NCBI GenBank assembly: GCA_039621445.1
Contig: CP154954.1
Span: 3,477,715 to 3,541,714 of the forward strand
Direction of reading: 5' to 3'
DNA: 64,000 nt
From: Euglena gracilis
Lineage: Eukaryota
The notes under the pieces are model-generated. The model was not told the DNA's origin. It made no database searches and saw only the letters and a list, made by a program, of their open reading frames with translations. Positions 2,950-38,700 of the stretch are shown here, one piece after another. A program made the translations under genes and the position numbers. The first letter of the stretch is position 1; each line of letters starts with the position of its first letter.

Positions 2950-5900
2950 CTTCGGGGGGGACAGCGGGGCGACAGTGGGGCCCCCCAGCCCCCCGAGGAG
3001 TGGCGAGGGGGGCCGGTGGAGGATCGGGAGGGAGGGATGAGCAGGGCTGGACGGAAAAAAACTGGTGGGCCCCCCAGGGGCCAAACCAACCAACCGAAGA
3101 ATGCCTGAAAACCCCCAAGTGAAACGAACTAAATAATGTGAAAGGCCCTCAAAGAAAAGAAATAGTGTGCACGGAAAACAAAAAACCATGAAAAAGCAGA
3201 AAAATCGTGAATGACAAAATCCCACCGCACAAACGGCCCTGCAACCTAGGGCCCGCCCTGTGGTTTGTGCGAGTCCACCACAGAACCCGCCCGCCCACAC
3301 CCTTCCGCGTCGACACGTCCGCAGAGAGAAGCAGAAGGGCGGGCCGGGGGCCCGCCCCCCCCCAGCCAGGCCCAGGCGGGCCCAGGACGGGGGGGGCACA
3401 GCAACCAACATGCCGGAAGACCCGTCTTTAATGGACCCCGTCCAACAAAGGGAAAAGGGCTGGCGGAAAAAGCCCCCCCCCCCCCTAGGGGCCGGGCGAG
3501 CGACCCAGGGTCGAACCGAAAAAAAAAAAAAAAAATACACAAAAATGCCCAAAACAGGGAGGAAAAAAATCCAACCCACGCAGACCGGGCCCCACCCACA
3601 AAGAACCGGAGTAAAGGACCCCGGGACCACTCAACTAAAAAAAAGCCCAGAACCCGAAGGGCAGAAAAAAATAAAATGAAAAATGAAAAGCGCTGACAAA
3701 AAAAAAAAAAACCCAAAAAGGACGGCAAAAAAAAAAATCCACATCCACAGCCAGGAAAAGAAGAGAGCCAACATGTGCGCACACAAAAAAACCCTCACAG
3801 CGGCACCTGCCCCTCTGGGACGTCCCCTCAGCGAAGCTCGACAAACGCCCCGTGGTGAAAAAGGCTGGGGGAAGGCGCCCCCCCCCCCCCCGGGCCTGCG
3901 ACCAAAGGCCGCACGGTGGACCCAGAAACACGCCCACACAGCACCAAAAGATGGGCCGAGCAAAAAAAACCCCCCCCCCCCCCCCCAAAACACCAACCGA
4001 GCAAAAAAACGCAAAATACCACGCTTTTTGAGCAATGTGTATGTGACCAGCCATGAAAATCACAAAAATCATAAAAATCATGAAATCAGCGGTGAAAAAT
4101 CATTGTGAGATTTTTTTGGCCAGAAAAAAATGTGTGGTTTCCCGCCTGGAGCCGACTGGACCGGCCCCCCGCCTCGATGTCCTTGGTGACGTCCGCGAAG
4201 ATGGTTGCGCCTTCAGGCCACACGCCGTTCCGCAGCAGCTGCAGGGCAGAGTGCGGGCCGGCCGGGGGCCAGGCCCTCCCCGCCAGCCAGGCCCCAGGCG
4301 GGGCCGGCCAGGACGATGGGGATCTGCCGGTACAGCAACTGATTGCTGACCCGGGGGCGGGGCGTCTTTTAACGACCCCGGGGTGCCAGCTCAGAGGCTG
4401 GAAAATGTGGGCTGGCGGGAAAAACGGCTGCTGGCTGCCCCCCCCCCCCTAGGGGTCCCGGGCTGGAGCGACCCAGGGTCGAACCGGGTACCAAAAAATC
4501 AAAAATGAAAAAATGTCCAAAAAAACTGCCAATTTGGCTGGAAAAAAATCGATTATTTGACCCAAATTTGCCCTGGCTGGCCTTATTCCATCCCATTTTC
4601 ACCCATTATTGACCCATTTTTGGCCCATTTTTGCACCTCTGAAAGCGATAAATCCGTTACCGCCCAGTCGCCCGAAGGGCGGCTGGAAATAAATAAAACT
4701 CGAGGGGTGGGGAGGGGATCCCGGGCTGAAAAAGGCTGCTGGCTGGAAAAAGGCTGCTGGCTGGCTGGACCCCCCTGGGGGTGGGGTCAAATTCTCTTTA
4801 GCAACGCCCTGCCCTGGGGTGCCCGCAGCCGCGGGCAGCACTTAAGCGGGCACACCAGCCACACAACGTCCCCAGTGATGCGCAATCACACAAATAATAA
4901 CAAACACAGAGCACGCACATAATATCTGCAAACGCTTGACGCTGTGGTGTGCTGTGCTGTGGCTGTGCCGTGCTGTTGTGAGCCGTGGTGTGGTGTGGCG
5001 TGCCACGTTGTGCCGCGGCAGTGTCGTGTGCCGTGCTGTGCTGTGGTGCATTGTGCCGCGTTGTGCTGTGGCTGTCTTTGTGGAGCACGACACGCCACAG
5101 CACGGCGCACCACGGTGCGTGAATGGCCGAGGCACAGCAGGGCATCGCCTCCCCCCCCCCCCAGCCGGGGCGGAGGTCCTTGCGGCATTCCACCAGCTCC
5201 CCAGCGACGCGGTGGTGCCGGCTGCGCACGAGGAACTGCCTCGGGTGTTCCATGTTGTGGGTGCGGCTGTACAGCCGCGCCGCGACGGAGTTGATGTGGA
5301 CCCGCCCCCGGGGCCGCCCGGGGGGTGCGTTCGTGTGCCCGCAGAGCCCTGGCTGAGACGGCGGACAAAACGGCGCGTCAGTTTGAAGCGGGGGGAAAAA
5401 GAAGTGACCCCTGTGGGCTTCCTGCAGGGGGGGGGGGGCAGACCTGAACCACCCCAAACGTTCCACCGGGCTTTGCCTCAGAGTTGGCTGCTGGTTCTGG
5501 GGGGGGGGGCGGTGCACCTCGTCCGTGACACACAACACTTTGTAGCTGACCGCCGAGGGGGGGGGGGCGGATTCGCTGGAGGTCAACGCAGAGTTTGGGG
5601 GGAAGTCAGCCGGGTGGAAGCCCCAAAGAACCCCGACCTGAACAGTGGTGTGGCACAGAAGAAGGGACGCCTGGACGCCTGGTGGACTGAACGTCCCGGC
5701 CAGAAGTCGATGGGGAAGGGTGGGAGCGTGGGAGTGTGCTGGCTCGGGGCAGGGCTGTCTTCCTTGGCACCCCCCACTGCGGCGCTGTTTGATTCTCTCC
5801 CCCCCCACTCTGTCCATGAGATACGTTAGGGCAACCAATGAAGTTAGGGCGTTGGACTCCTCGCACCCGATTGGTTGTTTTGCGTCTTTGCCACTACTTC

Positions 5901-35700: not shown

Positions 35701-38700
35701 AGCACAGGACAGCGAGGCCACAGCCCGGGCGTGGGCGTCAAGCACTGCCGCTTCACGTCCAGCAGCAGCGCCTGGAACGCCTCCCCCTCGGGCCCCTTGG
35801 GGGGCAGCAGCTGCTCCGCCGCCAGCACTGCCAGTGCCACGTTGGGGCAACGCAGCCCGCCCTGCAGGTGCTGCAGGCCGGGGTCCCTGGGAGGGGCCCG
35901 GGGGGGGGGGGGGGGGGGGATGGGGGTGGGGGAGCATGTGGTCCTCCAGAACGGCACCCCAAAAAAAATCAGACTTCAATTTTTTGTCTCCATTATCTTA
36001 ACTTTTTATGGTCCTGAGCTTTTCAGACACAAATCCATGTCAGGATTTGAATTTGGATTTGGGGGGAACGCTCCCACAGCCGCCTAAAATATGGATTGGC
36101 CCAAGGTTGAAGGGGGCGATTGGAGCGAGCAAACTTCGAGCTGACTTGCTCCCAAAAGCGAGAATCCAACGTTATACAATTTTGTTTCAATCCAGACCCT
36201 GAGCATTGGCCTGAAACATATGTGTCCTGGTGTGCAGGGGTTTTGAGTGGAATGAAGCCGGAAGGGCATGGTTTGTGTGATGTACCGAAACGTCCACCAA
36301 TTCCAACAGCACCCAAACCATTTGGAAGGGAACGAGGAGATGAGGCCATCGGCCACCCTCGGCCGCCCTGGCCGGACGGGTTCAGCAGCGCCACGGGGGC
36401 CTTGTCCGCCCATGCACCAGCACGGCGGCGCACCGAACCGCACCGCGCCCCTCCTCCACCACGACAGAGCAACCGCCCCCCAGGTGGCCACGCAGTGCAT
36501 GCCAGCCACGTACCTGCAATGCACAGCGACAGATGACTGCACACACACACACACACACACACACACACACACACACACACACACACGCACACACAAACAC
36601 ACACGTGTTTGTGTGTGTGTGTGTGTGTGTGTGCGTGTTTGTGTGTGTGTGTGTGTGCACATATGTGCGCGCAAACCACCCACCACACCCTTCCTCTCCT
36701 AATGACCGCAACGCAGCCAGGGGAGGGGCAACTCTGGCTGGAGAGTCTGGAGGGGGGTTGGTTCCAACCCCCGCCCCTCCAGGTGTGAGCGGAGGAAGAG
36801 GTAGTGGAATGTGGGGGGGGGGGGCGTGGCACTGGCACGCTTGGAGCCACCATGGGCAGAACACCGCTCAGCGAGGCCCGCCAGCTCCTGGATGTGGCCG
36901 AACAGCTCCGCGCCAGGCGCCAACCCAGCTAGAGGGTCGAGAGTCGATGCCCGATGCCCCCCCAGGAAACTGTCTCCAGACGAGCCCGTGAGTATGGGGA
37001 AGGAGACAAGTCAGCGGGTACAGAAGGGAAGCCGTATTCCAGGGAGAACAGTATCCCAGGGGGCGTGCAGAGCAGATTCCTAACATGGCAAGATAGAAAG
37101 GCATTCACTCCAGATCTACCCCCCCCCAAAATAGGACCTCATCCCAAAAATACTCCTCCAAAATTTTTTTAATAAAAAGTCCAAAAAAATAGACCCCCTA
37201 AAATTTTGAAAATGCCCCCCAATGGGTGATTCTTTTACATTTTCGATTTTCGCTCATTTTGCAGGTGCTAAAATTGACACTTTTTCAGACACATTTCGCT
37301 CATTGCCAGAAACTGCCCTTTTTTGGACCTATCTCTGGACCCTTCCGCGGGAAAGGTCGGTCAAAATTGTCAGCAATAATCCAAAAAGGAGCCCCCCCAA
37401 AATAAGACCTCCCTTGGGTTTTTCAGCAACAGACCCCAAAAGTGGACCGGCGTCTTTTTTTGAGAGGGGATAGGTGACAAATTCTCGTTTCCAGGACGGG
37501 AAAATGACATGGCGCGGGGGGGGGCAGAAATCATCATTATCATCGCCATAAAAATGCTGACCAAAATTGGAAAAGGAATCAACAATCAATGCTCAAAAAA
37601 GGCACCTCTCATCGTTAATTCCCCCTCACACAACACACAACACAACACAACACAACACAACACAACACAACACAACACAACACAACACAACACAACACAA
37701 CACAACACAACACAACACAACACAACACAACACAACACAACACAACACAACACAACACAACACAACACAACACAACACAACACAACACACACAACACAAC
37801 ACACAACACACAGCACATACCTCCCCCCTTGTCCAACGACCACTAATGTTTGTCTCCGACCGGGGGGTGACTAAAACAGCCAATCTTCATTTCCAACCAG
37901 GGGGGTGGTGGTTAGGCAAGGGGGGGGGGAAAGTTGGCGAAAAATTGGCCACAGGTGTGGTAGAAGACATTTTTGGGCTGTTTTGACCGTTTTGGGGCAT
38001 TTTGGGGGGTTTTTTGCCACTTGTGGACATTATCAGCCATTTCGGGCCACCTTCCGCCATTTTTTTTTGGCCATTTTTGGTCATTTTTAACCATCCTTGG
38101 CCATTCTTGGCCTTTTTGGCCAACTTTCAACAAAATTTTGTTGCTTGTTACAAACGCGTGCACTTAAACCTCCCTCCCACATAATAAACCCCCGAATATT
38201 AAACCCCCCAAATAATAAACCCCCTGAGGACCGACTACGGCTGCCCAATTAATAAACCCCCCTTCTGGCAGCTGTGAAGGCATAGACAAAAAGCAGGAAA
38301 AAGTCAGCAGAAATGTTGCAGCAAATCACAAAAATGGATGAAATTGGTGCATATACCCAAAAAGCACCCATTTTTCAAAAAAAAAAAAAACACCACAAAT
38401 GCCAAAAAAAAGTGACCATAGGAGCCCGTGGAGGGGTTTTGGGGTCGATTTTTGACTTCGAAATTTTCGCCCAAATAATAAACCCCCCAAATGATAAAAC
38501 CCCCCTGAACCCCAACTTCGAGTGTCCAAATAATAAACCGGGAGTTTATTATTTTGGGGGGTTTACATCAATTTTGGTCATTCTGGGCACTTTGGGAACA
38601 TTTTTGGGGGTTATTGGCCGTTTTTTCATCATATTTTTTGGGCATTCGCAGCCAAATTTTGGCCATCATCCCAACAAATCACAGAAAAAAACCATGAAAC

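Follow-up and report, generated by a model that had tools for sequence, protein, structure and literature searches.

The window analysed here, 64,000 nucleotides of a Euglena gracilis contig (CP154954.1, positions 3,477,715 to 3,541,714), contains a tandemly duplicated, minus-strand, cyclase-like gene, and all ten of the intervals to which an earlier note on this DNA had drawn attention sit within it. The repeat unit is approximately 43 kb: window positions 1-3159 match 43897-47062, and 4023-20978 match 47062-64000, with 97-99% identity. Copy 1 and copy 2 differ by 230 substitutions over 17 kb, clustered at 11.5-13.5 kb; their divergence was considered as a discriminator of exon from intron and dropped, the copies being too similar. 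Two proteins map to the gene as ordered minus-strand exons, namely P0001, the transcript-derived EukProt protein EG_transcript_2591 of E. gracilis, and P0002, an E. longa transcript ORF that is the orthologue of the gene. P0001 is 89-100% identical to the window exon by exon and is identical to neither copy. The predicted gene product combines a cyclase-homology region with an AAA_16-like one: PF00211 is found at the homologous region in the relatives P0003, P0006, P0007, P0008 and P0010, and P0001 itself has a weak AAA_16 match. None of 300 unspliced ORFs of at least 75 aa in 1-37000 gave a Pfam match above the gathering score, the exons being too short for this and the protein having diverged too far. 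Frame-disturbing differences from P0001 are present in both gene copies; one or the other copy may be a pseudogene, or indel errors in G/C runs may have entered the assembly. The introns of the gene are listed in Table 1; two more, I19 (about 46903-47210, copy 2) and I23 (about 35860-36800), obtained no placement from the E. longa orthologue.

Table 1. Introns of the cyclase-like gene and the second repeat copy (window positions; triplets are those at +4..+6/-8..-6; NC, nonconventional)
Feature	Position	Strand	Triplets	Details	Basis of placement
Second copy of tandem repeat	43897..64000				Window self-match
Conventional GT-AG intron I1	25244..28180	-			Spliced alignment
Conventional intron	20460-23612				Spliced alignment
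Conventional intron	13637-17753				Spliced alignment
Conventional intron	6672-7688				Spliced alignment
Conventional intron	40786-42485				Spliced alignment
NC intron I18	4253..5171	-	CCG/CGG		P0002 alignment
NC intron I17	5304..6576	-	CGG/CCG	5-bp stem; exon +1 = G	P0002 alignment
NC intron I15	7836..8899	-	CAT/GCG	C:G, A.C, U.G	P0001 alignment
NC intron I14	8969..9553	-	CCG/CAG	C.A mismatch at +5/-7	P0001 alignment
NC intron I13	9690..10151	-	CAG/CTG	5-bp stem	Top set against P0001
NC intron I11	11684..12684	-	CAG/CTG	5-bp stem	3-member top set against P0001
NC intron I10	12791..13498	-	CTG/CTG	MARC|ELPAG	2-member top set against P0001
NC intron I7b	17818..18016	-	CAG/CTG	199 nt; 7-bp stem	
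NC intron I7a	18047..18828	-	CGG/CCG		P0001-supported
NC intron I6	18902..19410	-	GAG/CTC		3-member tie set against P0001
NC intron I5	19462..20296	-	AAG/CTG		P0001 alignment
NC intron I3	23794..24456	-	CAG/CTG	8-bp stem	Top set against P0001
NC intron I2	24498..25165	-	CAG/CTG	6-bp stem	Top set against P0001
Intron I24, putative register	34188..35732	-	CCC/GGG (claimed)		Rank 491/2347 in-frame options
NC intron I22	36909..40644	-	CAG/CTG	5-bp stem	P0002 alignment
Intron I20, second gene copy, putative register	42619..46772	-	CAG/CTG (claimed)	4-bp stem; exon +1 = T	
NC intron I12, copy 2	53269..54675	-	CGG/CCG	3-bp stem	

Read on the minus strand, and only on that strand, all ten intervals show at their exact coordinates the triplets that the earlier note had listed for them (CAG/CTG six times, and CGG/CCG, CCG/CGG, CCC/GGG and CTG/CTG once each). 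A plus-strand reading with a +2 shift, in which the triplets lay 2 nt off, was abandoned once the minus-strand gene had been recognized. None of the ten has GT/GC...AG borders on the minus strand; such borders are seen in the five conventional introns of the gene. The triplets are fully Watson-Crick in nine, with a U.U mismatch in the tenth; C(+4):G(-6) and a G:C pair at +7:-9 are found in all ten, and the contiguous stems measure 4-8 bp. Position -1 is G in four intervals (9690, 12791, 34188 and 36909), as had been reported. The first position of the downstream exon (exon +1) is a purine in eight; it is T at 42619-46772 and C at 34188-35732, the same two registers that lack orthologue support.

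Junctions were tested by enumerating spliced alignments against P0001, with the orthologue P0002 as second reference, a placement that is made at the amino acid level and is precise only up to slide-equivalent registers. In five of the ten intervals (24498-25165, 23794-24456, 12791-13498, 11684-12684 and 9690-10151) the claimed register lies within the top-scoring, slide-equivalent set against P0001, and P0002 is consistent with three further intervals (5304-6576, 4253-5171 and 36909-40644). The register at 4253-5171 belongs to a 3-member top set against P0002 (KDL|HSA vs KDLHAA), with a stem of five Watson-Crick pairs, a G.U and five more Watson-Crick pairs, and exon +1 is A. That at 5304-6576 is one of six members of the top set and the sole member with pairing in the 3/5 geometry; its CGG/CCG is a known derivative motif. 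At 36909-40644 the register scores 75 against a top score of 76, and the junction residue is not conserved. Protein word-index searches with the 43-aa exon at 5173-5301 gave no match, so that neither the CCG/CGG junction of 4253-5171 nor the CGG/CCG junction of 5304-6576 is backed by an E. gracilis transcript. The U.U of 12791-13498 falls at +5/-7 within a stem in which 14 of 16 positions are paired (13 Watson-Crick, 1 G.U; |x|||:|||x||||||). Within intron 9690-10151 lies a (GCTGT)n array (9780-10032), and an exon of just 41 nt (24457-24497) separates I2 from I3. The claim that the intervals are NC introns ending in a helix with overhangs of 3 nt and 5 nt is supported, the junctions of eight of the ten being placed at the amino acid level; excision at the nucleotide-exact register and its mechanism are inferred.

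The other two registers, 42619-46772 and 34188-35732, have no protein support. The former runs across the point at which the second repeat unit begins, and there the E. longa alignment favours an acceptor lying 9 nt farther along (range 42609..42614-46771..46776, score 89 against 76 for the claimed register); a rival at 42604-46766 with CGG/CCG scores 77, and 13 of 761 options have at least four pairs in the 3/5 geometry. At 34188-35732 at least four such pairs occur in 23 of 2347 in-frame options, among them a rival register at 34183-35736 (CAC/GTG, 7-bp stem, exon +1 = G). The CCC/GGG example of the earlier note thus stands as a pair of triplets and not as a supported junction. A protein match to exon 35733-35861 (P0048, a 207-aa Logan ORF) is unspliced, reads into the intron and is uninformative on the junction.

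The same gene contains further NC introns that had not been listed. Intron 18902-19410 has a closing pair G(+4):C(-6), seven Watson-Crick pairs plus a G.U, and exon +1 = G; its flanking exons are 100% identical to P0001, and GAG/CTC recurs in the copy-2 equivalent at 61925-62436. The invariance of C(+4):G(-6) consequently holds only among the ten chosen intervals. The triplets are mismatched at 8969-9553 and 7836-8899, the latter with an 8-bp inner stem in register. In copy 1 the triplets of intron I5 are AAG/CTG, whereas its copy-2 counterpart (62488-63321) has CAG/CTG. A 30-nt micro-exon (18016-18045) comes after I7a, and an exon next to the copy-1 equivalent of I12 (about 10216-11633) is not in frame with P0001.

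Twelve of the 15 supported NC introns have fully complementary triplets, the other three having a mismatch inside the triplet. When partners were permuted among these 15 introns, the mean was 4.6 full Watson-Crick triplets (5.5 with slide freedom) and 12 was reached in 0 of 20,000 permutations; the triplet covariation is therefore real, as had been proposed. The middle position covaries as A:U, G:C and C:G. The possibility, raised beforehand, that variant pairs occur at chance level was not borne out, since five complementary non-CAG pairs were observed vs 0.9-2.0, with 3 and 193 of 20,000 permutations reaching five. Nine of the 12 P0001-supported NC introns have at least three contiguous pairs at x=3, y=5 (y being the 3' offset), compared with 0-1 at other y. 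Among random pseudo-introns from the window, at least five contiguous pairs at 3/5 occur in 0.19% with one register and in 0.94% with the best of six slid registers; at least three pairs occur in 10% with six registers. Co-folding places all three triplet pairs in the MFE structure for nine of 18 NC entries, including 18902-19410, vs none of five GT-AG introns. For the ten claimed intervals the co-fold bears out the pairing in part: all three pairs are present in five (4253-5171 among them), some in three, and none in 5304-6576 and 34188-35732. Exon +1 is a purine in all 15 supported introns.

These features closely resemble those of the introns described by Milanowski 2014/2016 (PMC3935182, PMC4770533), which have non-GT/AG borders, pairing of +4,+5,+6 with -8,-7,-6, mostly CAG/CTG, a frequent G:C at +7/-9, purines at intron +1 and at the downstream exon start, and complementarity that is kept. 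Milanowski 2016 concluded that what is preserved at +4..+6/-8..-6 is the complementarity and not the sequence (PMC4770533). A G at -1 is commoner here (5/17 introns) than their 6/55 non-pyrimidines, and three of our 15 introns have a triplet mismatch whereas +5/+6 are paired in all their 55; we see nothing essential in these differences. Nomura 2025 (PMC12501133) described NC introns as excised independently of the spliceosome, with circular intron RNA (discussion), and gave the code 5'-N3CDG-/-CH'GN5-6|R, i.e. C at +4, not C at +5 and G at +6, with C at -8, the complement of +5 at -7 and G at -6. The 3-nt/5-nt spacers, CAG/CTG and CGG/CCG, the exon +1 purine and the extended stem seen here all agree with it. 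Its triplets (CDG/CH'G) are found at seven of the ten claimed intervals, six with CAG/CTG and one with CGG/CCG, and not at the claimed CCC/GGG. Also outside the code are CCG/CGG (4253-5171, because +5 is C), CTG/CTG (12791-13498), GAG/CTC (18902-19410), CCG/CAG (8969-9553) and CAT/GCG (7836-8899); in the published data the code itself covered no more than 61.2% of NC introns, with 28.9% of all introns unclassified (PMC12501133). The survey of Gao et al. 2024 (PMC11170887) shares with our introns a 5' consensus of the CCAGG type and pairing of the termini, present in ~97% of NC vs ~65% of GT-AG introns; it is a genome-wide energy survey without covariation analysis, its text having 0 occurrences of 'covari' and 'complementar'. 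The covariation described here restates Milanowski 2016 and Nomura 2025, and is already known and correct in outline.

The intervals are very probably euglenid NC introns of a duplicated gene, with an end helix flanked by 3 and 5 unpaired nt, and the rule that they follow is already published. According to this rule the two ends of an intron would pair as a helix, with 3 unpaired nt ahead of its closing pair on the 5' side and 5 after it on the 3' side; the helix would usually be CAG(G)/(C)CTG, less often CGG/CCG, and the NC splicing machinery presumably reads the helix, the spacer lengths and a purine as the first base of the following exon. Alternatively, the introns may have been seeded by transposons whose inverted repeats, slowly altered by compensatory mutation, persist as the CAG/CTG ends; these ends would then be for the most part a footprint and not a sequence read by the machinery. 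This was posed by Milanowski 2016 (PMC4770533), a MITE origin is discussed by Nomura 2025 (PMC12501133), and flanking 8-mers match at 7/8 positions at 9690-10151 and 6/8 at 5304-6576. However, over 17 introns the flanking 8-mers average 3.35/8 matches vs 2.91 for mismatched intron pairs, hardly any signal of target duplication, and splicing is lost with any one-base change in CAG or CTG (PMC12501133), so the bases are read. We regard the footprint as a possible but rather unlikely main cause of the ends; it is compatible with the published end-helix rule.

The earlier note had gone further, proposing that pairing and not sequence marks the junction and that the minimal signal consists of a C-G-closed helix with overhangs of 3 nt and 5 nt. 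Complementary non-CAG triplets at protein-supported junctions (CGG/CCG three times, CCG/CGG and GAG/CTC) and the Milanowski 2016 idea of complementarity over sequence (PMC4770533) speak for such a helix sufficing whatever its triplets. Yet the compensatory CCC/GGG double mutant (CAG->CCC with CTG->GGG), which keeps the pairing, was not spliced while CTG/CAG was (PMC12501133, SI Fig. S11 legend), function was lost when the 12-bp inner complementarity was removed, and a purine is required at the downstream exon start (PMC12501133); the closing pair of 18902-19410, moreover, is not C:G. Sufficiency of the helix is accordingly improbable: pairing is necessary and not sufficient, because base identity also matters. 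That the non-CAG pairs are chance complementarity in GC-rich flanks, in cherry-picked registers with the true junctions elsewhere, could be argued from the many pairing options at the two unsupported registers and from the 10% of pseudo-introns above, but is highly improbable given the permutation test, three further variant pairs at P0001-supported junctions, and the two introns 4253-5171 and 5304-6576, where the orthologue alignment sets the intron length and only one member of each tie set pairs, over at least 5 bp (background 0.94%).

As NC introns are the majority of introns in Euglena, their exact cis-rule is of real interest. The present finding re-derives a published rule from a single locus; its useful residue is a set of natural, partly protein-validated exceptions, namely GAG/CTC, CCG/CGG, and U.U or C.A mismatches on long stems, to which the C-to-A change at +4 between the copies of I5 can be added. 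It is tempting to speculate, and we do so tentatively, that native introns with off-code triplets (GAG/CTC at 18902-19410; CCG/CGG at 4253-5171 with its 11-position stem) are spliced, and that the machinery might measure helix geometry (8 unpaired nt, 3+5, and the exon +1 purine) and tolerate non-canonical triplets on long stems. If so, off-code splicing could explain part of the 28.9% of introns that are 'unclassified' in E. agilis. The exceptions are suited to the existing EgGSL2 knock-in assay, in which the context-dependence of the code could be located.

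The window holds a tandem repeat whose unit is about 43 kb, with two copies (copy 1 and copy 2) of one long, cyclase-like gene on the minus strand: at 97-99% identity, 1-3159 corresponds to 43897-47062 and 4023-20978 to 47062-64000. Pfam searches of 300 unspliced ORFs (at least 75 aa, region 1-37000) gave no match above a gathering score. Used as a query among 1.84 billion representatives, the minus-strand exon 23370-23792 retrieved P0001 (95% identity), the 912 aa EukProt Euglena gracilis protein EG_transcript_2591, and P0002 (81%), its orthologue in a 786 aa Euglena longa transcript ORF. 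P0001 has a weak AAA_16 match, and PF00211, the cyclase catalytic domain, is found at the homologous place in more distant relatives. The exons of both proteins are ordered along the minus strand: residues 411-912 of P0001 map to exons from 28363 down to 7760, with per-exon identities of 78-100% (89-100% from residue 472 onward), the P0002 exons go on through 6655, 5313 and 4253, and in the second repeat unit further P0002 exons run through 42653, 40773, 36905 and 35843. This ordered mapping identifies all ten intervals for which the earlier note proposed paired termini as predicted introns of two tandem copies of this gene. Residues 1-410 of P0001 had no match anywhere in the window, relaxed tblastn included; the 5' part of copy 1 is either absent from the assembly here or different from P0001. 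The first mapped exon has a run of 13 N (28794-28806, in the region 28364-33500) directly upstream of it. The copy 1 exon near 10152-10215 is out of frame relative to P0001, and the copy 2 exon equivalent to 12685-12790 has single-base gaps relative to it; these frame differences reflect either decay of both copies or indels introduced into G/C runs by the assembly.

Read on the minus strand, each of the ten intervals begins with three nucleotides and a triplet and ends with a triplet and five nucleotides, just as had been described. On the plus strand, the triplets lie 2 nt off the positions assigned to them in every interval; coordinate drift was ruled out as the cause, the coordinates being exact on the minus strand. 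The G at -1 reported for four intervals is present, +7:-9 is G:C in all ten, and a pyrimidine stands at exon +1 only in 34188-35732 and 42619-46772. All in-frame, stop-free donor/acceptor pairs around each junction were enumerated and the spliced peptide was scored against P0001 or P0002; the evidence for junctions is thus at the amino-acid level, and P0001 differs from both copies in the window. Five of the ten proposed registers were supported by P0001 and three more agreed with P0002; those of 42619-46772 and 34188-35732 were unsupported by P0002.

Introns, alternative registers and repeat arrays of the duplicated gene (NC, nonconventional; 3/5 geometry, terminal helix leaving 3 nt at the 5' end and 5 nt at the 3' end of the intron unpaired)
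Feature	Positions	Strand	Triplets	Remark
Listed interval	24498-25165	-	CAG/CTG	In top, slide-equivalent set, P0001
Listed interval	23794-24456	-	CAG/CTG	In top, slide-equivalent set, P0001
Listed interval	12791-13498	-	CTG/CTG	In top, slide-equivalent set, P0001
Listed interval	11684-12684	-	CAG/CTG	In top, slide-equivalent set, P0001
Listed interval	9690-10151	-	CAG/CTG	In top, slide-equivalent set, P0001
Listed interval	5304-6576	-	CGG/CCG	In six-member top set, P0002; sole member pairing in 3/5 geometry
Listed interval	4253-5171	-	CCG/CGG	In three-member top set, P0002; sole member pairing in 3/5 geometry
Listed interval	36909-40644	-	CAG/CTG	At most 1 score unit below top, P0002
Listed interval	42619-46772	-	CAG/CTG	P0002 favours acceptor 9 nt further on (89 vs 76), at 42609..42614-46771..46776
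Third register for 42619-46772	42604-46766	-	CGG/CCG	Purine at exon +1; scores 77
Listed interval	34188-35732	-	CCC/GGG	Junction peptide not conserved in P0002; rank 491/2347
Rival register for 34188-35732	34183-35736	-	CAC/GTG	7-bp stem; G at exon +1
Further NC intron	17818-18016	-	CAG/CTG
Further NC intron	18047-18828	-	CGG/CCG
Further NC intron	53269-54675	-	CGG/CCG	Copy 2
Further NC intron	19462-20296; 62488-63321	-	AAG/CTG; CAG/CTG	Copy 1; copy 2
Further NC intron	18902-19410	-	GAG/CTC	7 bp + wobble; flanking exons 100% identical to P0001
Further NC intron	8969-9553	-	CCG/CAG
Further NC intron	7836-8899	-	CAT/GCG	In-register 8-bp inner stem
GT-AG intron	25244-28180
GT-AG intron	20460-23612
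GT-AG intron	13637-17753
GT-AG intron	6672-7688
GT-AG intron	40786-42485
Microsatellite array	9780-10032			Inside intron
Microsatellite array	37635-37803			Inside intron
Microsatellite array	16401-17305			Inside intron
Microsatellite array	42321-42485			Inside intron

The same protein mapping yielded seven more NC introns and five conventional GT-AG introns. At least three contiguous Watson-Crick pairs from +4 with a 5-nt 3' overhang occur in 9 of the 12 P0001-supported NC introns, and at any other 3' overhang only 0-1 of the 12 pair so; at least five pairs were found in 0.19% of random pseudo-introns of the window at a single register and in 0.94% at the best of six. Triplets are fully complementary in 12 of 15 supported NC introns, as against a mean of 4.6 with permuted 3' partners (5.5 with five slid registers), and 12 was reached in 0 of 20,000 permutations. 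Nor do the variant pairs look like chance in GC-rich flanks: five complementary non-CAG pairs were observed and 0.9-2.0 expected, five being reached in 3 and 193 of 20,000 permutations. On these statistics the triplets of this gene truly covary. In co-folds of the first and last 30 nt, all three triplet pairs appeared in the minimum free energy structure of 9 of 18 NC entries, 5304-6576 and 34188-35732 not being among them, and of none of the five GT-AG introns. The C(+4):G(-6) pair, held to be invariant, closes all ten listed intervals but not 18902-19410 in the same gene; its invariance is therefore a feature of the earlier selection and not of the gene.

The original observation is accurate, yet the covariation is already in print. 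Its headline was stated by Milanowski et al. (2014, 2016; PMC3935182, PMC4770533), with CAG/CTG in 33 of 55 introns and a purine at position +1 of both intron and exon, and the available text of Gao et al. (2024; PMC11170887) shows terminal pairing genome-wide in E. gracilis. Mutagenesis of the kind proposed in the earlier note has also been performed: in the available text of Nomura et al. (2025; PMC12501133), single substitutions in CAG or CTG abolished splicing, a 5' spacer of 3 nt and a 3' spacer of 5-6 nt were required, CGG/CCG, CGG/CTG and CTG/CAG variants were spliced, and a CCC/GGG double mutant with pairing intact was not. This last result and the neighbouring GAG/CTC intron contradict the strong form of the claim, that any C-G closed stem with these overhangs suffices whatever its triplets. 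A C-G closed stem with overhangs is likewise too little as a minimal signal, for the assay in that text also requires inner complementarity, and a purine is called for at exon +1. The code given there, N3-CDG..CH'G-N5-6|R, fits 61.2% of NC introns and leaves 28.9% of all introns unclassified. Several natural introns of this gene lie outside that code (GAG/CTC, CCG/CGG on a long stem, and central-mismatch triplets on long stems), and CCG-CGG does not occur in the searched SI text of that paper; these introns are the mildly interesting remainder. A +4 C-to-A change affects one tandem copy (copy 1, 19462-20296) of an otherwise canonical intron and, because published point mutants of the +4 C abolish splicing, copy 1 may by analogy retain this intron in its transcript. 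The out-of-code introns and the C-to-A copy would make test cases for the existing knock-in assay; they do not amount to a new kind of system.

In a target-duplication test, 8-mers of five exon plus three intron nucleotides (5' side) and five intron plus three exon nucleotides (3' side) matched at 7/8 positions at 9690-10151 and 6/8 at 5304-6576, as a target-site duplication would; no such likeness was seen in the remaining 15 introns, and the mean over all 17 was 3.35, vs 2.91 in mismatched pairs. The 863 nt at 3160-4022 are found in copy 1 only, within the intron between exons 4164-4252 and ~2869-2996; neither a clear terminal inverted repeat nor a clear target duplication could be recognised in this stretch, and two pieces of it resemble the neighbouring intron parts 4255-4302 and 4438-4522 (83-88% similarity). 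The introns also contain long arrays of microsatellites: (GCTGT)n at 9780-10032, (ACACA)n at 37635-37803, a (TG)n-rich one at 16401-17305 and (AC)n at 42321-42485. A 30 nt micro-exon (18016-18045, minus strand), whose ten residues are identical to P0001, stands between two NC introns, CGG/CCG and CAG/CTG.
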